Below are positions 2,661-48,550 of a DNA stretch of 64,000 nucleotides, one piece after another. The notes below the pieces were generated by a model. The model was not told where the DNA came from. It did no database searches and saw nothing but the letters and a program-made list of their open reading frames with translations. The position numbers and the translations under genes were made by a program. The number at the start of each line of letters is the position of its first letter. The stretch's first letter is position 1. Origin of the DNA: an uncultured Eubacteriales bacterium (GTDB taxonomy: Bacteria; Bacillota; Clostridia; Oscillospirales; Acutalibacteraceae); contig CAYJGB010000001.1 of assembly GCA_964369405.1 (NCBI GenBank), forward strand, positions 98,408 to 162,407. Direction: 5' to 3'.

Positions 2661-4304
2661 ATGATAAATATTCATCAAAGATTTTGTGAAGAAACATTTG
2701 AAAACGGAGAATTAGTAGACTTTAAGATTAAGTATGAAGAAAATTTTAACTTTGCATATGATGTACTAGACGAAATTTCAAAAGCTGAACCTAAAAGAAG
2801 AGCTATGTTTTGGTGCAATGATAAAGGTGAAGAAAAAACTTTTACATTTGAAGATATGACACGTTATAGTAATATGGCTGCAAATATGTTTACAGATTTA
2901 GGCATTAAAAGAGGAGATACAGTTGTTTTAATACTTAAAAGACATTATCAATTTTGGACAGCATTATTAGGACTTCATAAAATTGGAGCAGTTGGAATAC
3001 CGGCTACCAATTTGCTTACAAAAAAAGATTTAGTATATAGATTTAACGCAGCAGATGTAAAAGCTGTAATTTGTACAACGCATGGAGATATAATTAAGCA
3101 TATCAACGAGTCTTTACCTGAGTCACCAACAGTTAAAGTTAAGATAAGTGTTAATGGTGAAGCAGACGGCTATGTAAATTATGATGAGCAATTAGAAAAA
3201 TACAGTGATAAACTTGACAGAATAGAAACATTATCATCAGACCCTATGTTACTTTACTTTACATCAGGTACAACAGGGCTTCCTAAAATGGTGTGGCACG
3301 AACAATCATACCCTTTAGCACATATAGTAACAGCTAAGTACTGGCACAATGTAGTACCAGACGGGTTGCATTTAACGCTTTCAGATACTGGTTGGATGAA
3401 GGCTATGTGGGGTAAACTTTATGGACAATGGTTAATGGAAGCTGGTATTTTTGTATGTGATTTCGACAAATTCACACCAACAGATTTATTAAAATTATTC
3501 TCAAAATATCAAATAACAAGTTTCTGTGCACCACCTACAATGTATAGATTTTTCATCAAAGAAGATTTAAGCCAATACGATTTATCAAGCATTAAACACG
3601 CAACAATTGCAGGAGAGCCACTAAACCCAGAAGTGTTTAATCAATTTTACAAAGCAACAGGCTTAAAACTTATGGAGGGTTTTGGACAAACAGAAACAAC
3701 TCTTACGCTATTTAACTTGATTGGAACAAACCCTAAACCTGGTTCAATGGGAAGACCATCACCTGCGTACAAAGTTGACTTAATAGACTTTGATGGTAAA
3801 TCTGTACAGCCTGGTGTAGTTGGAGAAATCGTTATAAGAACAGACGAAGGTAAAGTTTGTGGTATGTTTAATGGTTATTACAAAAACGAAGATTTAACTA
3901 AAAATGTTTGGGATAATGATATATATCATACTGGAGATACAGCGTGGAAAGATGAAGACGGTTATTACTGGTATGTAGGAAGAACAGACGATATAATTAA
4001 ATCATCTGGATACCGTATAGGACCATTCGAGATAGAGAGCGTAATAATGGAGCATCCATGTTGTTTAGAATGTGCGATAACAGGAGCACCAGACGAAATA
4101 AGAGGACAAGTGGTAAAAGCTACAATAGTATTAGCAAAAGGGTATGAACAAAGCGAAGAGTTAAAAAAAGAAATACAAGATTATGTTAAGAAACAAACAG
4201 CGCCATATAAATACCCACGAATAGTAGAATTTGTAGATGAACTACCAAAGACAATAAGTGGAAAGATACGCAGAACAGAAATAAGAGGAGATAAAAGAGA
4301 TTAA
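2661..4304 (+). CDS. AMP-dependent acyl-CoA synthetase/ligase (medium-chain/acetyl-CoA synthetase-like)
   Basis: AMP-binding signature YFTSGTTGLPKMV, plus GYYWYVGRTDDIIKSSGYRIGPFEIE and C-terminal PKTISGKIRR. 547 aa. Confidence 0.85.
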   Translation: MINIHQRFCEETFENGELVDFKIKYEENFNFAYDVLDEISKAEPKRRAMFWCNDKGEEKTFTFEDMTRYSNMAANMFTDLGIKRGDTVVLILKRHYQFWTALLGLHKIGAVGIPATNLLTKKDLVYRFNAADVKAVICTTHGDIIKHINESLPESPTVKVKISVNGEADGYVNYDEQLEKYSDKLDRIETLSSDPMLLYFTSGTTGLPKMVWHEQSYPLAHIVTAKYWHNVVPDGLHLTLSDTGWMKAMWGKLYGQWLMEAGIFVCDFDKFTPTDLLKLFSKYQITSFCAPPTMYRFFIKEDLSQYDLSSIKHATIAGEPLNPEVFNQFYKATGLKLMEGFGQTETTLTLFNLIGTNPKPGSMGRPSPAYKVDLIDFDGKSVQPGVVGEIVIRTDEGKVCGMFNGYYKNEDLTKNVWDNDIYHTGDTAWKDEDGYYWYVGRTDDIIKSSGYRIGPFEIESVIMEHPCCLECAITGAPDEIRGQVVKATIVLAKGYEQSEELKKEIQDYVKKQTAPYKYPRIVEFVDELPKTISGKIRRTEIRGDKRD

Positions 4305-11487: not shown

Positions 11488-13071
11488 TTGCCTGACTTTT
11501 TAAACGAGATAAGTAAAAGAAGAACTTTTGCAATTATATCTCACCCAGATGCCGGAAAAACAACTTTAACAGAGAAATTATTACTTTACAGTGGTGCGAT
11601 AAATGTTGCAGGAACAGTAAAAGGTAAAAAATCTTCAAAGCATGCAGTGTCTGACTGGATGGAAATAGAAAAACAAAGAGGTATTTCAGTAACATCATCT
11701 GTGCTACAATTTAAGTATGATGGATATTGTATTAATATACTAGACACACCAGGACATCAAGACTTTTCAGAAGACACATATAGAACTCTTATGGCAGCAG
11801 ATAGTGCAGTAATGGTTATTGATGCATCAAAAGGTGTAGAAGCACAAACTATAAAATTATTTAAAGTATGTTTGCTAAGAAATATACCAATTATAACATT
11901 TATAAATAAAATGGATAGGGAAGCAAAAAACCCATATGAATTGTTAGAAGATATAGAAAATGTACTAGGAATAAATACATATCCAATGAATTGGCCTATT
12001 GGATGTGGAAAAGAGTTTAAAGGTGTATATGATAGAAAAGAAGAAAGCATATTATCATTTACAGCAAACAATGGACAAAAAGAAGTAGAACAAAGAGAAT
12101 TAAAAGTAAATGATATTGACTTAGAAAATGAAATTGGCAAATTGTTTAAAGTGCAATTACTTGAAGATATAGAGCTTCTTGATATAGCGGGAGATGATTT
12201 TGATATAAATCAAGTAAGAGAAGGAAAGCTTACACCAGTATTTTTTGGTTCAGCACTAACAAATTTTGGAGTAGAACCATTTTTAAAAGAATTCTTAACA
12301 CTTACAACATCACCACTACCTAGAGAAACAAAAGATGAAGAAATAGAACCAACTGATGAACATTTTTCAGCATTTGTATTTAAAATACAAGCAAATATGA
12401 ACAAAGCACATAGAGATAGAATAGCATTTATGAGAATATGTTCAGGAAAATTTGAAAAGAATATGGAAGTATATCATGTTCAAGGTGGCAAAAAGATGAG
12501 GTTATCTCAACCACAACAAATTATGGCACAAGAAAGAGAAATAATAGAAGAAGCATATGCAGGAGATATAATTGGAGTGTTTGACCCAGGTATATTTTCT
12601 ATAGGAGATACAATATGTCTAGCAAATAAAAAAGTAGAGTTTAAAGGTATACCAACATTTGCACCAGAACATTTTTCATTAGTAAGACAAAAAGATACAA
12701 TGAAGAGAAAACAGTTTATAAAAGGTATATCACAAATTGCACAAGAGGGAGCAATACAAATATTCCAAGAACTAGGAGCTGGAATGGAAGAAGTAATTGT
12801 AGGAGTAGTAGGAACATTACAATTCGAAGTGTTGGAGTATAGACTTAAAAATGAATATAATGTAGATATTATAATGAGTGGATTGCCATATCAGTTTATA
12901 AGATGGATAGGCAATGAAGATATTGACCCTAAGACCTTAGATTTGTCATCAGATACAAAAAGAATACAAGATTTAAAAGGTAATTATTTATTATTGTTTA
13001 CTAGCCAGTGGACAATCAATTGGGCGTTAGAACATAATAAAGATTTAATTTTAAACGAATTTAGCGTGTAA
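11488..13071 (+). CDS. prfC: peptide chain release factor 3
   Basis: RRTFAIISHPDAGKTTLTEKLLL, DTPGHQDF and NKMD GTPase motifs in RF3 context. Likely TTG start at 11488, 7 nt after GGAGG and in frame with the track ORF that starts at 11452. Confidence 0.9.
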   Translation: MPDFLNEISKRRTFAIISHPDAGKTTLTEKLLLYSGAINVAGTVKGKKSSKHAVSDWMEIEKQRGISVTSSVLQFKYDGYCINILDTPGHQDFSEDTYRTLMAADSAVMVIDASKGVEAQTIKLFKVCLLRNIPIITFINKMDREAKNPYELLEDIENVLGINTYPMNWPIGCGKEFKGVYDRKEESILSFTANNGQKEVEQRELKVNDIDLENEIGKLFKVQLLEDIELLDIAGDDFDINQVREGKLTPVFFGSALTNFGVEPFLKEFLTLTTSPLPRETKDEEIEPTDEHFSAFVFKIQANMNKAHRDRIAFMRICSGKFEKNMEVYHVQGGKKMRLSQPQQIMAQEREIIEEAYAGDIIGVFDPGIFSIGDTICLANKKVEFKGIPTFAPEHFSLVRQKDTMKRKQFIKGISQIAQEGAIQIFQELGAGMEEVIVGVVGTLQFEVLEYRLKNEYNVDIIMSGLPYQFIRWIGNEDIDPKTLDLSSDTKRIQDLKGNYLLLFTSQWTINWALEHNKDLILNEFSV

Positions 13072-13080
13072 TACTTAAGG

Positions 13081-13250
13081 GTGATGGTGCTGTCTCACTA
13101 ATGTTAATATTCCCAAATCTTTGTAGGGGGGAGCATTCTATATGCTCCCTATTTTTTGTAAATTTGAAGAATTTTGTGCGAAAATGAATTTCGCTCCTAC
13201 AACTGGATTGTATAATATGACGAACAATTTTCTAAATGCGACAGCCCCAT
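13081..13250 (-). repeat. structured intergenic repeat, family A, copy 2 (inverted relative to copy 1)
   Basis: The reverse complement aligns to 9426-9592 along its whole length. The first ~55 nt differ at one position. It has the same internal hairpins (GGGAGCAT..ATGCTCCC, GCGAAA..TTTCGC). Confidence 0.85.
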
Positions 13251-14354: not shown

Positions 14355-15047
14355 TTATTCTTCTCTAGGGTCTATGTATTTAGCTGCGTTATCAAAACGT
14401 CCATACTGACCGATATTGTTTTTGTATGCTTCGTCTGGTGTCATACCATGACGAATATCTTCCATCATTTTACCGATTTTTACAAATTGGTAACCTGTTA
14501 CTTCATTGTTTTCGTCTAAAGCTGTTTTTAGTACATAGCCTTCTGCCATTTCCATAAAACGTACGCCTTTTGCTTTTGTACTAAACATTGTACCTACTTG
14601 TGAACGTAAGCCTTTTCCTAAATCTTCAAGGCCTGCTCCGATTGGTAAACCACCCTCAGAGAAAGCTGTTTGGCTTCTACCATAAACTAATTGTTCAAAA
14701 AGATTTTTCATAGCAACGTTTATAGCGTCACATACTAAGTCAGTATTTAAGCACTCTAAAAGAGTTTTACCAGGTAGTATTTCTGCTGCCATTGCTGCTG
14801 AGTGAGTCATACCTGAACAACCAATTGTTTCTACTAGAGCTTCTTCTACAATACCTTCTTTAACGTTTAATGTTAATTTACAGGCTCCTTGTTGTGGTGC
14901 ACACCAGCCTACTCCGTGAGATAGACCTGCTATGTCTTTGATTTCGTAAGATTTTACCCATTTTCCTTCTTCAGGAATTGGTGCTGGACCATGATTTGGT
15001 CCTTTCGCAACTATACACATATTTTCAACTTCATGTGAATAATTCAT
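14355..15047 (-). CDS. NifU/IscU N-terminal-like Fe-S scaffold-domain protein
   Basis: Cys-containing segments GVGWCAPQQGACKL, ETIGCSGMTHSAAMAAE and LVCDAI resemble the IscU/NifU N-domain. ATG at 15047 is 7 nt after AAGGAG. Confidence 0.65.
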   Translation of the reverse strand: MNYSHEVENMCIVAKGPNHGPAPIPEEGKWVKSYEIKDIAGLSHGVGWCAPQQGACKLTLNVKEGIVEEALVETIGCSGMTHSAAMAAEILPGKTLLECLNTDLVCDAINVAMKNLFEQLVYGRSQTAFSEGGLPIGAGLEDLGKGLRSQVGTMFSTKAKGVRFMEMAEGYVLKTALDENNEVTGYQFVKIGKMMEDIRHGMTPDEAYKNNIGQYGRFDNAAKYIDPREE

Positions 15048-15102
15048 ATACATGCTCCTTTCGCATTAGAATAGTATAACATAGTTTGTTTATACTGTTT
15101 AT

Positions 15103-15130: not shown

Positions 15131-15227
15131 GCAAATTAACGATAAATTTACACAATTTGTTAAATTATATTAAAAAAATTAGTATTTACTTATATGTTGA
15201 TAAAAATTGCTGAAAAGAAGTAGTACT

Positions 15228-15377
15228 CTTTATCTAAACTTACGGTCGCCCGCCATTCAAATCGAAGATTTGAATGAAGATGCACCAACACACTCCTTGT
15301 AAGGTTTAGGAAAGTGTTGGTGCATCTATGCTCGAAACTAAAGTTTCGAGTGCGGGCGACCGTAAGTTTAGATAAAG
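15228..15377. repeat. structured intergenic element, family B copy 1 (predicted four-way junction)
   Basis: P1 is a 26-bp perfect stem (15228-15253 with 15352-15377). P2 15254-15276. P3 15279-15291 with 15314-15326. P4 15331-15350. Second copy at 41068-41204. Confidence 0.85.
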
Positions 15378-15385
15378 GCCTACTT

Positions 15386-16669
15386 TTAATTTTTTTTCTT
15401 ACTATCTTCTATTAAACTCTCTTTTGCTACTGCAAGCATTAATTTAATTCTGTTTTCTTGATTAACTCTAGGTGCTCCTGGGTCATAGTCTATTGTAACT
15501 ATATTTGCACGCTCATCAATACTTTTTATTTTTCTTATCATACCTTTACCATTTATGTGGTTTGGTAAACAGCCAAATGGTTGAGTACATACAATGTTTG
15601 GGTATCCAGATTCTGCAAGCTCTAACATTTCAGCAGTTAAAAGCCAACCTTCACCCATCTTACTACCATAACCTACTACATCTTTTACTAATTCTTTAGT
15701 GTGTAAATAAGGCGATGGAGCAACAAAACCATATTTTTTGGCACTGTCTATTATTAAATTTTCCATTTTAGATAAATAGTTAAAGAATAATTTAACTATG
15801 TTAAATTTAATTTGATTACCACCATACAAGATAATATCTTCTGCTCTGTTATCTACCTTAAATAGCATAAAAGCCATTATTCCAGGTATACATACTTCAC
15901 AGTCTTGCTCTTCTAAAAACTTTTCTAAATTGTTGTTTCCAAGTTTAGCATATTTAACATATATTTCACCAACAATTCCAACTTTCACTTTTGGAACTAC
16001 ATTTAATTTAATCTCTGAAAAAGACTTAGCGATTTCATCTAAAATTATAGTTTGCTCTTTTACAGTAAAGCCTTTACCATTTTTAAATTTATCAGTAAGC
16101 TTATCAATCCAAGTTTGTACTAGTTTATTACTTTCACCTTTGTTTACTTCATAAGGTTTTGTTTGATTATTTAGAAGCATAAGAGTATCGCCATATACTA
16201 ATGCGCCAATAACTCTTCGCATCATAGGTAAAGTAAAGCTAAAACCACTATTTTTTTCAAGCCCTGAGAGGTTAAGTGAAATTACAGGAACTTTTTCAAA
16301 ACCAGCTTTTTTAAGAGCTTTTCTAAGTAAATGAATGTAATTAGAAGCTCTACAACCACCACCAGTTTGAGTAATCATTAAAGCAGTTTTATTAACATCA
16401 TAATTTCCACTTTGCAAAGCATGAATAAATTGACCAATTACAAGAAGGGCTGGATAACAAGTATCATTGTGAACATATTTTAAACCAACTTGAGCAATTT
16501 CAGGACCATCAGTATCTAGTAATATAGTTTTGTAATCAAACATATCAAATACATTTTTAATAAATGTAAAATGTATAGGTGCCATATTAGGTAGAAGTAT
16601 GGTGTATTCTTTTTTCATTTCTTTAGTAAATAGTAATCTACCAGTATTATCATATTGTAATTGTGCCAT
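15386..16669 (-). CDS. 2-hydroxyacyl-CoA dehydratase-family (HgdB/D-component-like) protein
   Basis: 427 aa with the CoA-dehydratase-like Cys pattern (DTCYPAL, GGGCRASNY, CTQPFGCLPNH). Immediately downstream of the double-activase gene. Confidence 0.7.
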   Translation of the reverse strand: MAQLQYDNTGRLLFTKEMKKEYTILLPNMAPIHFTFIKNVFDMFDYKTILLDTDGPEIAQVGLKYVHNDTCYPALLVIGQFIHALQSGNYDVNKTALMITQTGGGCRASNYIHLLRKALKKAGFEKVPVISLNLSGLEKNSGFSFTLPMMRRVIGALVYGDTLMLLNNQTKPYEVNKGESNKLVQTWIDKLTDKFKNGKGFTVKEQTIILDEIAKSFSEIKLNVVPKVKVGIVGEIYVKYAKLGNNNLEKFLEEQDCEVCIPGIMAFMLFKVDNRAEDIILYGGNQIKFNIVKLFFNYLSKMENLIIDSAKKYGFVAPSPYLHTKELVKDVVGYGSKMGEGWLLTAEMLELAESGYPNIVCTQPFGCLPNHINGKGMIRKIKSIDERANIVTIDYDPGAPRVNQENRIKLMLAVAKESLIEDSKKKN

Positions 16670-20314: not shown

Positions 20315-21163
20315 ATGAAAAGTAAACAATATGCAGTAATAGGACATCCAATAGGACATACTATGTCACCATTTATACATAAAAGGTTGTTTGACCTTGC
20401 ACAAATAGATGCAAAATATTCAGTATTAGATATTTCGCCAGAAAATTTAAAATTAGAATTTAATAATACATTAAAAAATTTAGATGGATTTAATATAACA
20501 ATACCACATAAAGAAAATATAATTAATTGTTTAAATGGATTAGATGAAAAAGCAAAATTATATGGCAGTGTAAATACAGTAGACAATAAAAATGGAATAT
20601 ACACAGGCTATACAACTGACCCAGATGGATTTATAAAAGCATTAGAAGCTTATGACATTCCGTTTGAAAATAATGTTATGATTTTAGGGACTGGTGGAGT
20701 AGCTAGAACTATGGCATACGAAGCAGTAAAAGCTAATTGCAATCTAACTATAGCAGTTAGAAAAGAAGATATAGAAATATCTAACAAGTTAATAAAAGAG
20801 ATAACAACAAATATTGAAGCAAGTAGTATTAAAACGTGCTTAATTAGTGAGATAGATAATTCACAAATAGATTTACTTATTAATGCAACACCTATTGGAA
20901 TGTATCCAAGAGTTGATAATTGCCCTGTAAGTGACAATATAATCAATAATTGTAAAAATGTATTTGATGCAGTATATAATCCACTGGAAACTATACTGGT
21001 TAAAAAGGCAAAGGCACAAGGAAGTAATGCAGTAGGTGGAATGTCAATGCTTGTATGGCAAGCAGTAGTAGCTCATAATATATGGGACGGCAGTATTTAT
21101 AATAAAGAAGATATAGACAAATTATGTACAGATAGTGCAAACGAACTTAAAAACAATTTTTAA
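20315..21163 (+). CDS. aroE: shikimate dehydrogenase
   Basis: YAVIGHPIGHTMSPFIH, NITIPHK, SVNTV and GTGGVAR motifs. ATG at 20315 is 9 nt after AGGAG. Confidence 0.9.
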   Translation: MKSKQYAVIGHPIGHTMSPFIHKRLFDLAQIDAKYSVLDISPENLKLEFNNTLKNLDGFNITIPHKENIINCLNGLDEKAKLYGSVNTVDNKNGIYTGYTTDPDGFIKALEAYDIPFENNVMILGTGGVARTMAYEAVKANCNLTIAVRKEDIEISNKLIKEITTNIEASSIKTCLISEIDNSQIDLLINATPIGMYPRVDNCPVSDNIINNCKNVFDAVYNPLETILVKKAKAQGSNAVGGMSMLVWQAVVAHNIWDGSIYNKEDIDKLCTDSANELKNNF

Positions 21164-23015: not shown

Positions 23016-23119
23016 AATAAAATTATATTGTCCCACCGATTAAATAATTATTTAGTCGGTGGCACTCTTAAAATTTTACAAATGTTCAAATTTATATTAC
23101 AATAGATTGGGTGGTTAAA

Positions 23120-39153: not shown

Positions 39154-41043
39154 TTGAAAACATCAGTTAAAATTGTGTTGTTTTTAGCAGTTATTTTTTC
39201 ATGTGTCTTTTTATTTACTTCTTGTGAAGAAAAATCTGTAGACGTTGAAAATGTTGTTAGCTTTAATGATAAATTTGAGGGTGACAGAACTATTACTTTG
39301 CACGTTGGCCAGTTGTTAAGTGGTAGAGATGATTTAAAGGCTCAGTTAGATGAGATTATAGATAATAATACACCTTCTGTTTTTGAAACTTCGATTGATG
39401 AAACAGAAGAGGGACTTAAATATAATTTTAAATTAAGCTTTACATCTGAAAAAGATTACGAAAATAAAATTAGTTCCGTTCTCGGGCAAGAAACTGATGT
39501 GCAGTTAAGCACACCAGACAATACACTTACTAAAGGTTGGCGTTATGTCGAAGATTTTGACGGTATGGAATTAATTTCATTTATTGCTAATGCAGCAGTA
39601 GAAAGCAATTACAAAGACTTATTAGTCACTTATAATAGTATTTCTAATGTAGTAAACTTTGATGGTAAAGTGAAAATTAGTGATACTAGTATAGTCGACA
39701 TTAGTGATGTGTCAGGTTTTTCAGTTACTGATATTTCTATTGATACTACAAATAATAAACAAGATAGCTATGATAGACGATTTACAATCACTTTTCCACA
39801 AACAACTTACGACAAAATGGGTGAGGATTTATTAACTCTTATGGAAGAAAGAACAGATGAGTTAGCAGATTATAGCGGTTGGACTCAACAAGGAAATAAT
39901 CAAGAGTTTCAAGTGTTTTACAAAGGTGTAAGTCTTGTCGAATTGCAAGCAGTTACTTCTAAGTTTTTAGATTGCGATAGCCAATATTTATATTATGGAG
40001 ATGAAAATAATAGTAGTACTCCACTTGCTGAGCAGTTAGTTTTTGAAGAAAGATTTAACTTATTAAGCTTTATATCTGTAGATGGAAAAACTGTACCTAT
40101 AACTTATAAATATTCACTACCGATTAAAACTACATATGGTGATGGTTTAGTGCTTGAAGATGGTTCATGGGATAAAAACGGCAAGTGGATAGACGGGGTA
40201 TATACTTTAAGTAGCTCCAATGAGAGCGTTGCTGTAAGAGTGCCTGACGGTATGCAATATAAAATAGACGGAGTAGCTGTAACTGTTGAAAATTTGGGTG
40301 ATAACAAATTTGTGCGTGAATTCGACTTTTTATATGATAAGAACAGTGGTGTAGATGGTTGCAATTATGCAAGTAATTATTTTCAACAGCAAGGAGTAAA
40401 AGCTACAGTTACTAAAAATGATGTAAATTTGATATGTTCAGTAAAAGAAGAGGGAACAACACAAGAGATAGATAAGTTTTTTAAAGAGTTATTAGGTGAA
40501 GATAACGAGTTTTTACGAACAGAGAATACAAGTGCTATGGCAGTTGTAACTGATTTGAAATTAGTAGACTCAGTAAATATAACAAATATGCTTAACGAAG
40601 AAAATATGAACATAACATATAAATACACAATGAAAAATAAAGGGCAAGAAAATATAATTTCATTAGATGGACAAGATAACAGCGAAGATGGAGAAAAAGT
40701 TTCATCACAACTAGATAAGAATGGTGATTATGTTATAGAGCTACAAGGTGGAGAAAATACTATAGAGCTTATATCAACAGTGCCATATCAAGATGGTATA
40801 ATTACATATAGTGTTATAGCAGGAGTAATGTTATTGTTAACTGGTGTGGCTATAGTGTTATTGTTAAGGAAATCAAAAGGATTAAAGATATTTGCTTTTA
40901 ATAAAAAGAATGGTGCAACAGATGAAAGTGCAAATGAAGATAAAGAAGATGATGTTGAGCAGATAACAGACGAAAATATAAAAGATAATGATAACGAAGA
41001 TGATACATTGTATAAGTATTATGATGATGAAGATTTATTATAG
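39154..41043 (+). CDS. predicted lipoprotein with C-terminal TM anchor and acidic tail, function unknown
   Basis: Signal peptide with a lipobox-like LFTSC. The C-terminal TM segment (VIAGVMLLLTGVAIVLLL) is followed by a D/E-rich tail. 629 aa. Confidence 0.65.
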   Translation: MKTSVKIVLFLAVIFSCVFLFTSCEEKSVDVENVVSFNDKFEGDRTITLHVGQLLSGRDDLKAQLDEIIDNNTPSVFETSIDETEEGLKYNFKLSFTSEKDYENKISSVLGQETDVQLSTPDNTLTKGWRYVEDFDGMELISFIANAAVESNYKDLLVTYNSISNVVNFDGKVKISDTSIVDISDVSGFSVTDISIDTTNNKQDSYDRRFTITFPQTTYDKMGEDLLTLMEERTDELADYSGWTQQGNNQEFQVFYKGVSLVELQAVTSKFLDCDSQYLYYGDENNSSTPLAEQLVFEERFNLLSFISVDGKTVPITYKYSLPIKTTYGDGLVLEDGSWDKNGKWIDGVYTLSSSNESVAVRVPDGMQYKIDGVAVTVENLGDNKFVREFDFLYDKNSGVDGCNYASNYFQQQGVKATVTKNDVNLICSVKEEGTTQEIDKFFKELLGEDNEFLRTENTSAMAVVTDLKLVDSVNITNMLNEENMNITYKYTMKNKGQENIISLDGQDNSEDGEKVSSQLDKNGDYVIELQGGENTIELISTVPYQDGIITYSVIAGVMLLLTGVAIVLLLRKSKGLKIFAFNKKNGATDESANEDKEDDVEQITDENIKDNDNEDDTLYKYYDDEDLL

Positions 41044-41067
41044 ATGAAATTTTAATATTTAGAAAAA

Positions 41068-41204
41068 CTTAGGGGCACCCGCCCATTCAAATCAAAGATT
41101 TGAATGATAAGGCACCGACACAACAAAGGTTATGATTTATAAGAATGTTGGACGGTGCCTTAAATGAGCGAAACTTTCAGTTTCGCTTGGCGGGTGCCCC
41201 GAAG
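41068..41204. repeat. structured intergenic element, family B copy 2 (predicted four-way junction)
   Basis: P1 41068-41083 with 41189-41204. P2 41084-41106 is near-identical to copy 1. P3 41109-41124 with 41147-41161. P4 41167-41187. Architecture and linkers match 15228-15377. Confidence 0.85.
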
Positions 41205-41434
41205 ACTTTGTATAAAGCATATAATAATGGCTAGTTACGCAATATAATTTATAGTTTAATGTTAAAGCAGATACTGAACTTACAAATGTTTATTTGAAAT
41301 TGATTAATAAATTAGTAATTATTAATATAAAATTATTTAAAACTTATATAATATTTAAAAAAATTTAAAAAACACTACTATTCTGATAAAAAATGTGTTA
41401 TTATACTATAAATAAATATGAAAGTGGTAGATTT

Positions 41435-48046: not shown

Positions 48047-48120
48047 GCGGATGTAGTTTAGTGGTAGAACTTCAGCCTTCCAAGCTGATCGTGTGGGTTC
48101 GATTCCCATCATCCGCTCCA
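48047..48120 (+). tRNA. tRNA-Gly (anticodon TCC)
   Basis: Acceptor GCGGATG/CATCCGC. Anticodon arm TCAGC-CTTCCAA-GCTGA. T-loop GGTTCGATTCC. Encoded CCA. Confidence 0.9.
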
Positions 48121-48151
48121 AAAGATTTTAATTTAATAATCTTAAACTTAT

Positions 48152-48228
48152 GTGCCAATAGCTCAGCCGGATAGAGCAACTGCCTTCTAAGCAGTAGGTC
48201 AGGGGTTCGAATCCCTTTTGGCACGCCA
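48152..48228 (+). tRNA. tRNA-Arg (anticodon TCT)
   Basis: Acceptor GTGCCAA/TTGGCAC. Anticodon arm ACTGC-CTTCTAA-GCAGT. T-loop GGTTCGAATCC. Encoded CCA. Confidence 0.9.
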
Positions 48229-48266
48229 ATGGTGACTAAGAATTTTATTCTTAATCACCATTATAT

Positions 48267-48344
48267 GGTGGATATAGCTTAGTCGGTTAAAGCGCCAGTT
48301 TGTGGCACTGGAGATCGTCGGTTCGAATCCGATTATCCACCCCA
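48267..48344 (+). tRNA. tRNA-His (anticodon GTG)
   Basis: Extra 5' G(-1) then GTGGATA/TATCCAC. Anticodon arm CCAGT-TTGTGGC-ACTGG. Encoded CCA. Confidence 0.9.
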
Positions 48345-48347
48345 TAT

Positions 48348-48423
48348 GATTCATTAGCTCAGCTGGCAGAGCACTTGACTTTTAATCAAGGTGTCCGGAG
48401 TTCGATTCTCCGATGAGTCACCA
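48348..48423 (+). tRNA. tRNA-Lys (anticodon TTT)
   Basis: Acceptor GATTCAT/ATGAGTC (one G-U pair). Anticodon arm CTTGA-CTTTTAA-TCAAG. Encoded CCA. Confidence 0.9.
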
Positions 48424-48455
48424 TTAGACGGACAAGTATAAACTTGTCCGTCTAA
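48424..48455 (+). other. strong hairpin inside the tRNA cluster (processing site or internal terminator)
   Basis: 14-bp perfect stem TTAGACGGACAAGT/ACTTGTCCGTCTAA starting immediately after tRNA-Lys. A weaker hairpin lies at 48231-48259 after tRNA-Arg. Confidence 0.5.
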
Positions 48456-48475
48456 TCAAAATTTATTATTAATAT

Positions 48476-48550
48476 TGGGCTATCGCCAAGCGGTAAGGCA
48501 ACGGACTTTGACTCCGTCAGTCGCTAGTTCGAATCTAGCTAGCCCAGCCA
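48476..48550 (+). tRNA. tRNA-Gln (anticodon TTG)
   Basis: Acceptor TGGGCTA/TAGCCCA. Anticodon arm ACGGA-CTTTGAC-TCCGT. Encoded CCA. Confidence 0.9.

Follow-up and report, generated by a model that had tools for sequence, protein, structure and literature searches.

Nested-palindrome intergenic repeats with a three-hairpin interior in an Acutalibacteraceae-like lineage of uncultured Clostridia

Gene Context of the Two Elements

The window, which is the whole 64-kb stretch of DNA analysed here (30% GC), comes from the chromosome of an uncultured, Acutalibacteraceae-like clostridial bacterium; homologues of its proteins are labelled Acutalibacteraceae, Clostridia or Ruminococcus in database records. 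Two of its intergenic regions are occupied by related palindromic elements, E1 and E2 (Table 1). E1 lies 8 nt past the stop codon (15386–15388) of the minus-strand gene 15386–16669, which is 2-hydroxyacyl-CoA dehydratase-like in database records and adjoins its activase, and the next minus-strand gene is found 174 nt beyond E1. E2 starts 16 nt past the stop codon of the plus-strand gene 39154–41043, and a HAD hydrolase gene follows about 180 nt on. Along the upstream gene's direction of transcription, the inner hairpins come in the order P4-P3-P2 in E1 and P2-P3-P4 in E2; the two copies thus have opposite orientations to transcription. The interval 15228–15377 is not overlapped by any ORF of 60 aa or more, and neither a sigma-70-like promoter nor a canonical terminator was scored at E1 or E2. 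The about 38 window ORFs scanned are ordinary housekeeping genes, among which no transposase, integrase, RAYT or reverse transcriptase was found; mobilising enzymes are also absent from the called genes beside the elements of related genomes.

Table 1. Coordinates of E1 and E2 in the window and of the related elements in loci of relatives
Feature	Location	Length or sequence	Description
E1	15228–15377	150 bp	Nested palindrome: closing stem P1 enclosing hairpins P2, P3 and P4
E1 outer extension, left	15217–15222	AAGTAG	Pairs with CTACTT at 15380–15385 across a small internal loop
E1 P1, left arm	15228–15253	CTTTATCTAAACTTACGGTCGCCCGC	AT-rich outer part; inner core CGGTCGCCC common to elements of relatives
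E1 P2	15254–15276	CATTCAAATC-GAA-GATTTGAATG	Perfect 10-bp hairpin, C-GAA-G triloop
E1 P3	15279–15326 (arms 15279–15291 and 15314–15326)		Perfect 13-bp stem, 22-nt loop; variable hairpin
E1 P4	15331–15350	CTCGAAACT-AA-AGTTTCGAG	Hairpin
E1 P1, right arm	15352–15377		Complementary to the left arm at 26 of 26 positions
E1 outer extension, right	15380–15385	CTACTT	Partner of AAGTAG; between the element and the stop codon 15386–15388
E2, including degenerate outer arms	41060–41212		Arms 41060–41083 and 41189–41212 complementary at 83%
E2 P1 core, left arm	41072–41083	GGGGCACCCGCC	
E2 P2	41084–41106		Stem identical to E1 P2, loop AAA
E2 P3	41108–41162		9-bp base, internal loop, 5-bp upper stem, variable apex
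E2 P4	41167–41187	GCGAAACT-TTC-AGTTTCGC	
E2 P1 core, right arm	41189–41200	GGCGGGTGCCCC	
E1′	L008 / L022 3996–4118		Behind the orthologous gene in the closest relative
E3	L009 3262–3392	131 nt	Closing-stem core ACGGTCGCCC, identical to E1
E4	L009 13061–13164	104 nt	Subfamily common to E5
E5	L009 16139–16242	104 nt	Subfamily common to E4
E6	L021 8383–8555	173 nt	
E7	L009 21145–21270		Found by covariance model as the eighth element

Architecture and Predicted Fold

In a preliminary description, E1 was proposed to fold as a four-way junction and to have a second copy in the window. The sequences and coordinates given there for E1 were all correct on re-examination, including the uninterrupted P1 stem and the AAGTAG/CTACTT pairing, and the second copy is present and built like E1. 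The four-way junction itself is the minimum free energy (MFE) fold of E1 on both strands and with DNA parameters. The folding energies are −106.3 kcal/mol for the plus-strand RNA (z −17.1, with 0 of 200 shuffles as stable), −104.6 kcal/mol for the minus-strand RNA (z −18.3) and −67.5 kcal/mol for DNA (z −16.3). The junction linkers of E1 are 0, 2, 4 and 1 nt in length. The core of E2 (41072–41200) shows the same architecture and fold as E1 with RNA and with DNA parameters, and the two elements fold alike whichever strand is taken and whether treated as RNA or DNA, with z of about −11 to −18. A covariance model scores E1 at 151 bits on the plus strand and 73.5 bits on the minus strand.

P2 and P4 each occur only twice in the window, in E1 and E2, for a chance expectation of about 0, and the four P1 arms of the two elements are the sole GC-rich non-coding islands of the window. 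No third copy was found in the window by an unfiltered covariance-model search. A weak match at 13121–13202 (E 0.015) was rejected as an ordinary terminator region. The P3 arms, considered as guide or target sequences, have no other match within the window.

A Related Element Behind the Orthologous Gene

The closest relative, whose dehydratase-like protein is 89% identical, is represented by the locus L008 and by L022 from a second sample. It carries an element, E1′, directly past the stop codon of the orthologous gene, with the same hairpin order relative to the gene as E1. The P2 and P4 stems of E1′ and E1 are identical at 38 of 38 nt, whereas the synonymous third positions of the adjoining gene and its window orthologue are only 64% identical. 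Because the adjacent synonymous third positions have diverged so far, a purely selfish palindrome does not explain the invariant P2 and P4 stems; the invariance points to sequence-specific recognition or gene conversion.

The other helices of the pair have changed without losing their pairing. P1 differs by three compensatory pairs and by a shift of 2 nt at the junction end. In P3, 8 of 13 pairs are doubly substituted with no mismatch, and the apex is different and longer in E1′. Of these double changes in P3, half are transversion pairs and cannot have passed through a wobble intermediate. The P2 triloop, in turn, is inverted on an identical stem, such that the gene-sense strand has GAA in E1′ but TTC in E1.

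Sites orthologous to those of the window are not always occupied. The E1 site is without an element in relatives at 84% and 82% identity, and the E2 site is without one in L020 and L021, which carry the orthologue of the 629-aa gene, the flanks at the compared E1 and E2 sites being too diverged for a clean empty site. The genes downstream of E1 and E1′ share only 23% identity, and in L020 the gene order changes past the 629-aa gene; the elements are therefore placed where synteny ends.

The Wider Family

Loci of relatives were scanned for GC-rich inverted repeats 35–220 nt apart with an interior folding into hairpins, which revealed E3, E4, E5 and E6, alike in architecture to the window elements but with other inner sequences. 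An unfiltered covariance model built from E1 only also finds E3, E4, E5 and E7, with E values from 6e-11 to 8e-6. The family sample comprises eight copies (seven distinct) from three related genomes of about 30% GC, with two copies in the window, six more in related genomes and a length range of 104–173 bp. Every strong branched element of the ~30%-GC loci contains exactly three inner hairpins, and no elements were found in relatives at 38–48% GC. The preliminary description had allowed that more copies might show the helices not to be maintained; in the elements of relatives they are maintained, via compensatory change.

The arms of the closing stem are homologous across the subfamilies (..ACAA..CTT(C)-GGGG/CGGT-YNR-CCC..), a homology that covers E1, E2, E1′, E3, E4/E5 and E7, whereas the interiors differ. 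The GC core is preceded by CTTAC, CTTAG, CTTTC or CTAC, and thus by no conserved tag. A GCACAA hexamer, considered as a common recognition motif, was discarded: it is enriched in the L009 elements only and absent from E1, E2 and E6. At the ends of seven elements, neither a target-site duplication nor a consistent direct repeat was found.

All eight elements are intergenic and no ORF is interrupted. Six of them (E1′, E6, E1, E2, E3 and E7) start 0–19 nt past a stop codon, and the other two, E4 and E5, are found 95–149 nt past a stop codon, just behind ordinary terminator hairpins. Two ordinary terminator-like hairpins come after E1′, which is the sole element with a T-run immediately behind its stem (TTTTGTG). 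E3 lies between the genes for DAHP synthase and prephenate dehydrogenase, with 41 nt left to the next start codon, and E7 is located between convergent genes. It could be deduced from the ordinary terminators beside E4, E5 and E1′, from the position of E3 and from the T-run at E1′ alone that the elements are not simply the terminators of the genes.

Pairing and Loop Signature

Pair counts were taken from a helix-by-helix comparison and from a model-fitted alignment; an alignment of three close copies by MAFFT and RNAalifold mis-registered the 3′ half, and its pair counts were excluded. The MFE folds of seven elements contain 382 Watson-Crick pairs and, per strand, 2–3 G-T pairs, all of which are in doubtful apical mini-stems. 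In the model-fitted alignment of 12 hits, which was fitted to the structure and includes both strands of five elements, standard pairing is seen in 98.2% of 493 pair cells, double changes occur at 41 of 43 pairs (176 cells), and a one-sided change, a G-U, is present in one cell. The covariation score is 0.92, as against 0.20 for shuffled data (0 of 500 reach 0.92) and at most 0.10 for slid partners. The same behaviour is visible over a short distance between E4 and E5, whose seven differing positions make up three compensated pairs, including an adjacent dinucleotide, and one unpaired position, with no uncompensated change.

A motif is usually assigned to RNA, and to one strand, by G-U pairs and by GNRA or UUCG tetraloops (PMC2864571). 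No GNRA or UUCG tetraloop is present in the elements. Their hairpin loops are mostly of 3 nt. Of 11 independent cases, 7 show a GNA loop on one strand, and C-G closes five of these; the other perfect triloop hairpins of these loci include only 3 such loops among 29 (Fisher p 0.0015). Loops of the d(GNA) type with C-G closure form exceptionally stable DNA mini-hairpins (PMC3201870, PMC13037366). Neither the loops nor the junction linkers (0–6 nt) show conservation across the elements.

Searches Against Known Families and Sequence Collections

At the gathering threshold of Rfam 15, the window yields five tRNAs alone, and E1 and E2 fall into no family, in agreement with the earlier view that they cannot be assigned to a named RNA family. 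When the limit was relaxed to E ≤ 10, the best models over E1 and E2 were miRNA and snoRNA models at 13–22 bits, against thresholds of 38–195, and these are regarded as chance matches. Rfam gave no matches in the relatives' loci L009, L021, L022 and L020. A tRNA-like origin was rejected with ARAGORN, which reports just the five true tRNAs.

Searches by blastn with E1, and with six joined elements, against phage and plasmid collections returned nothing. A scan for exact P2 stems with any triloop (CATTCAAATC-NNN-GATTTGAATG) retrieved only unrelated simple palindromes, 7 from the genome collection and 9 from the metagenome collection, and nothing (0) from the viral collection. The closing-stem motif has six chance matches in viral contigs, in GC-rich coding DNA, and arms of the E4 type have none.

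Comparison With Known Systems

The closest described analogue of the elements is bcr1, a repeat of the Bacillus cereus group that was compared with them by description only. These Group A repeats are about 155 bp in length, non-coding, multi-copy and transcribed, and their positions are not conserved between close relatives; their cruciform-like fold is kept by compensatory changes, and they are considered non-autonomous mobile sequences of a special class (PMC3184786, PMC6542083). The elements similarly have a cruciform-like fold with compensatory changes, are of similar size and multi-copy, and occur in Firmicutes. However, bcr1 forms two independent stem-loops, whereas the elements have three perfect hairpins, and it shows 5-bp direct repeats and a TTTAT motif, whereas the elements are without direct repeats and carry CTTTAT/ATAAAG in inverted arrangement within the E1 stem. 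The host lineages are also different, being Acutalibacteraceae-like Clostridia in the case of the elements. Copies of bcr1 have been reported on plasmids of the B. cereus group (PMC6542083); for the elements, blastn found no match among 72,556 plasmid records.

REP and REPIN sequences are extragenic palindromes behind genes that form single-strand hairpins and do not duplicate their target; each lineage has families of its own, which evolve inside the genome (PMC3116915, PMC8266576, PMC3733652). Extragenic palindromy, predicted hairpins in single strands, the lack of a detected target duplication and lineage specificity are shared by the elements. REPs, however, are imperfect hairpins of 20–40 nt tagged with GTAG or CGTC at one end, and REPINs consist of two inverted REPs in one long hairpin; by contrast, the elements are branched four-way junctions of 100–170 nt that have no conserved tag, and no RAYT gene is present within the 64-kb window.

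Bacterial MITEs such as Correia/NEMIS, ERIC, RUP, EFAR and Nezha are 70–300 bp in length with terminal inverted repeats of 15–30 bp and no coding capacity, and they are inserted beside genes, co-transcribed and capable of robust RNA folds (PMC3733652). The elements are comparable in size, lack of coding capacity, multiple copies, terminal inverted repeats (26 of 26 in P1 of E1) and location. As in mobile repeats, there is also insertion polymorphism, the E1 site being occupied at 89% and empty at 84% and 82%. MITEs, however, are flanked by target-site duplications, have ends like those of a parent IS and hold no fixed multi-hairpin architecture in their interiors; for the elements, neither a duplication nor, among the about 38 window ORFs, a parent IS was found.

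The GC-rich closing stem just past stop codons and the T-rich flanks at E1 and E1′ are reminiscent of intrinsic terminators, bidirectional ones included. Unlike these, which have a loop of 3–8 nt and a T-run, the closing stem encloses about 100 nt and three hairpins, and most copies have no T-run; the copies moreover co-occur with ordinary terminators, and E3 stands 41 nt ahead of the next ORF.

Signals that act as folded single-stranded DNA include the sso of rolling-circle replicons, priming sites of the G4 type and the attC sites of integrons, with structural analogies in parvovirus ITRs and Streptomyces telomere folds. Similar to these signals, the elements are multi-hairpin, conserve structure above sequence, possess GNA mini-hairpin loops and show a flip/flop-like loop inversion. 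Whereas such signals are carried by plasmids, phages or integrons or located at the ends of replicons, and are served by dedicated enzymes, the elements are dispersed among chromosomal housekeeping genes, where no such partner was seen. In contrast to riboswitches, ribozymes and sRNAs, the elements have no conserved unpaired nucleotides, no fixed strand and no fixed gene class. In contrast to an inverton, they have no internal promoter-like site or recombinase gene in the window, and the hairpin order is equal in E1 and E1′. Given their differences from bcr1, MITEs and REP/REPIN sequences, the elements are filed as small structured palindromic intergenic repeats of no named family.

Proposed Maintenance and Alternative Explanations

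On balance, we lean towards the interpretation that E1 and E2 are lineage-restricted, non-coding nested-palindrome repeats of a REPIN-, MITE- or bcr1-like kind, which are maintained at the DNA level and do not constitute an RNA gene; any RNA effect of the elements is probably secondary. Maintenance at the DNA level is favoured because the fold is formed by both strands, the stems are limited to Watson-Crick pairs, double substitutions appear without intermediates and the P2 loop is inverted, and further because the triloops are of DNA type, the orientation is inconsistent, the distribution is patchy and conserved terminal inverted repeats surround variable interiors. The preliminary description is upheld insofar as it recognised a real, repeated multi-helix element, with helices kept by compensatory change and a complexity beyond that of a terminator. 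The structured RNA that it implied is not, in view of the lack of conserved unpaired nucleotides, the near absence of G-U pairs on either strand, the opposite orientation of the copies, the P2 loop inversion, the presence or absence of elements among relatives and the failure to find an adjacent promoter or canonical terminator. The outcome reached is instead close to one that it had named as contrary to its own reading, a species-specific palindromic DNA repeat, although the repeat is specific to a lineage.

In the proposed mechanism, three short perfect palindromes are enclosed by a closing stem of conserved terminal inverted repeats, whose outer part is AT-rich and whose core is GC-rich and CGGTCGCCC-like. 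In single-stranded phases of either strand, as could arise in replication, repair or transcription-driven supercoiling, the element would adopt a compact four-way junction that may be stabilised by the C-GNA-G mini-hairpin loops. Quasi-palindromes are subject to template-switch mutagenesis, from which the correction of the stems is inferred. Intrastrand template switching, combined with selection for the fold, could convert a change in one arm into a change on both arms, and template switching could likewise invert a loop. Copies might spread or exchange among intergenic sites behind genes, without target duplication, via an enzyme. The mechanism of DNA-level maintenance, the mobility and any RNA effect are all proposed by inference, the mobility solely from how the copies are distributed.

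If co-transcribed, an element would introduce a very stable, orientation-independent structure into a 3′UTR or an intercistronic RNA. As with REP, ERIC and Correia sequences, such a structure may impede 3′ exonucleases or recruit RNase III, an effect taken here as a by-product. By analogy with small repeats of the MITE/REP type, for which influences on RNA decay or processing have been reported (PMC3733652, PMC3184786), an effect of this kind may be a by-product or the reason why copies are tolerated behind genes.

It is possible, although we regard it as doubtful, that a cis-acting RNA is the selected function itself, with the elements setting the stability of the upstream mRNA as a 3′-exonuclease barrier, an RNase III site or a weak terminator. 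This could account for the uniformly intergenic positions (six copies 0–19 nt and two copies 95–149 nt past a stop codon, with no ORF interrupted), the extremely stable folds, the TTTTGTG directly after E1′, the placement of E7 between convergent genes and the intercistronic E3, where differential mRNA decay would make sense; known repeats of the MITE/REP type also behave in this way (PMC3733652, PMC3184786). However, the orientation relative to transcription varies, and a single change of G-U type stands against 176 double changes, half of those in P3 being transversion pairs that offer no wobble route. GNRA and UUCG tetraloops (PMC2864571) are absent and DNA-stabilising GNA triloops are enriched instead; moreover, the T-run is missing in most copies, and E4, E5 and E1′ adjoin ordinary terminators.

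It is unlikely, though worth stating, that the elements are structure-specific DNA elements of a class not described before, in which a single-stranded DNA 'cloverleaf', marked by its conserved closing stem and its C-GNA-G mini-hairpins, is recognised by a junction enzyme. Such an enzyme could be of the HUH type, Holliday-junction-resolvase-like, or a primase or primosome. If true, junction recognition would explain the constant three-hairpin architecture despite freely changing inner sequences, and would represent either a new way of moving small palindromes without target duplication or a single-strand signal used by the host. A long-standing question would be opened only if a junction-specific enzyme turns up.

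A function of the folded single strand in the service of the host or of a mobile element, either as a priming or single-strand-initiation site or as the substrate of a structure-specific nuclease or recombinase acting on the junction and closing stem, appears similarly unlikely. It would fit the Watson-Crick-only stems on both strands, the enrichment of C-GNA-G mini-hairpin loops (PMC13037366), the conservation of architecture and closing-stem core with interiors free to vary, and the invariant P2 and P4 stems, which suggest sequence-specific recognition. On the other hand, neither an associated gene nor a connection with plasmid, phage or conjugative DNA was found, and the strand bearing the GNA loops is inconsistent relative to the genes.

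We consider it very improbable that the palindromes are protein sites in double-stranded DNA, with P2 and P4 as operators for dimeric regulators or P1 as the inverted repeats of an invertible switch. P2 is indeed a perfect 10-3-10 palindrome conserved in three copies, and the 26-bp arms of P1 form an inverted repeat around 98 bp. Other subfamilies, however, keep the architecture with quite different inner palindromes, and compensatory change preserves pairing and not sequence; there is no promoter-like site in or beside the elements and no recombinase or regulator gene nearby, and E1 and its counterpart E1′ share their hairpin order relative to the gene. The least credible explanation is that the four-way junction forms the core of a riboswitch, a ribozyme or a structured non-coding RNA with a gene of its own: the stable multi-helix fold and strong covariation would suit such an RNA, possibly a new one as no known family matches, but the linkers of 0–6 nt are not conserved and thus leave no candidate ligand-binding or catalytic core, the helices are all perfect without internal loops, no promoter or terminator frames the element, and the orientation to flanking genes is inconsistent, with neighbouring genes that are functionally unrelated.

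Conclusions

If the interpretation as DNA-level repeats is right, the elements represent a new and unusually regular branch of the small structured repeats of bacteria, in which the architecture and the closing stem are conserved and the inner sequence is not. Their signature of double substitutions only, loop inversion and mini-hairpin loops of DNA type comes close to that of pure DNA, and would also make them a clean natural case for the question of how palindromes stay perfect, by template switching or by selection. For the discovery of RNA motifs, they serve as a warning that extreme covariation statistics can arise without an implied RNA function. In the uncultured gut Clostridia lineage that carries them, the elements mark variable points of gene order.

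Sequence features of the elements

The hexamer GCACAA/TTGTGC occurs three to four times in and just beside each of the four-way-junction elements of L009, a locus from a relative (regions 3237-3417, 13036-13189, and 16114-16267), and the outer arms of these elements are among its positions; its background is 1.55 per kb. It is not present in the window's two elements, E1 and E2, or in E6 of locus L021. This hexamer may be a recognition motif specific to a subfamily. The closing stem of E7, also from L009, contains a G-T wobble at 21149 / 21266 (CGGTTGCCC against GGGCGACCG), the sole such pair among the core helices of all the elements, which may reflect a recent C-to-T change that has not yet been 'corrected'.

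Other intergenic sites

In the window, the DAHP synthase gene is separated from the prephenate dehydrogenase gene by a stretch with a simple hairpin (CCCACCGA...TCGGTGG) at 23019-23076, and the same intergenic site in L009 is occupied by E3, a four-way element of 131 nt. The window hairpin might be a conventional terminator or attenuator, or could represent the type of site that four-way elements occupy. A weak match of the covariance model built from E1 (17.9 bits, E 0.015) was obtained at window 13121-13202, between convergent genes and downstream of the prfC-like one. It was rejected as a family member, since the stretch folds into small hairpins and a GC-rich terminator of the ordinary type.

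Gene neighborhoods

Features of the window and of the close relative's locus L022
Feature	Location	Strand	Remarks
Gene downstream of E1	window 14355-15053	(-)	no Pfam match
Gene at corresponding position in 89% relative	L022 4329-5045		
Terminator-like hairpin 1	L022 4146-4180		AGGTATGGCGAA..TTCGCCATACCT+TTT; ordinary type
Terminator-like hairpin 2	L022 4211-4235		CACAGAT..ATCTGTG+T-run; ordinary type
629-aa protein gene	window 39154-41043	(+)	no Pfam domain
Five-tRNA-gene cluster	window 48047-48550		Gly-TCC, Arg-TCT, His-GTG, Lys-TTT, Gln-TTG

The 629-aa protein has nearest homologues of only 59-61% identity, though the adjoining genes are well conserved, and a distant homologue carries the name 'outer membrane protein assembly factor' in one source. 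Its C-terminus is acidic and of low complexity.

Both terminator-like hairpins of L022 come immediately after E1', the element at the orthologous gene of the close relative, and no counterpart of the two is found after E1 in the window. The protein encoded downstream of E1 shares only 23% identity with its positional counterpart in L022, and the gene that comes next codes for a GGGtGRT protein in the window and for one of PqqD-like type in L022. Synteny between the window and the relative stops at the element, and the region may be a variable small-peptide/maturation locus.
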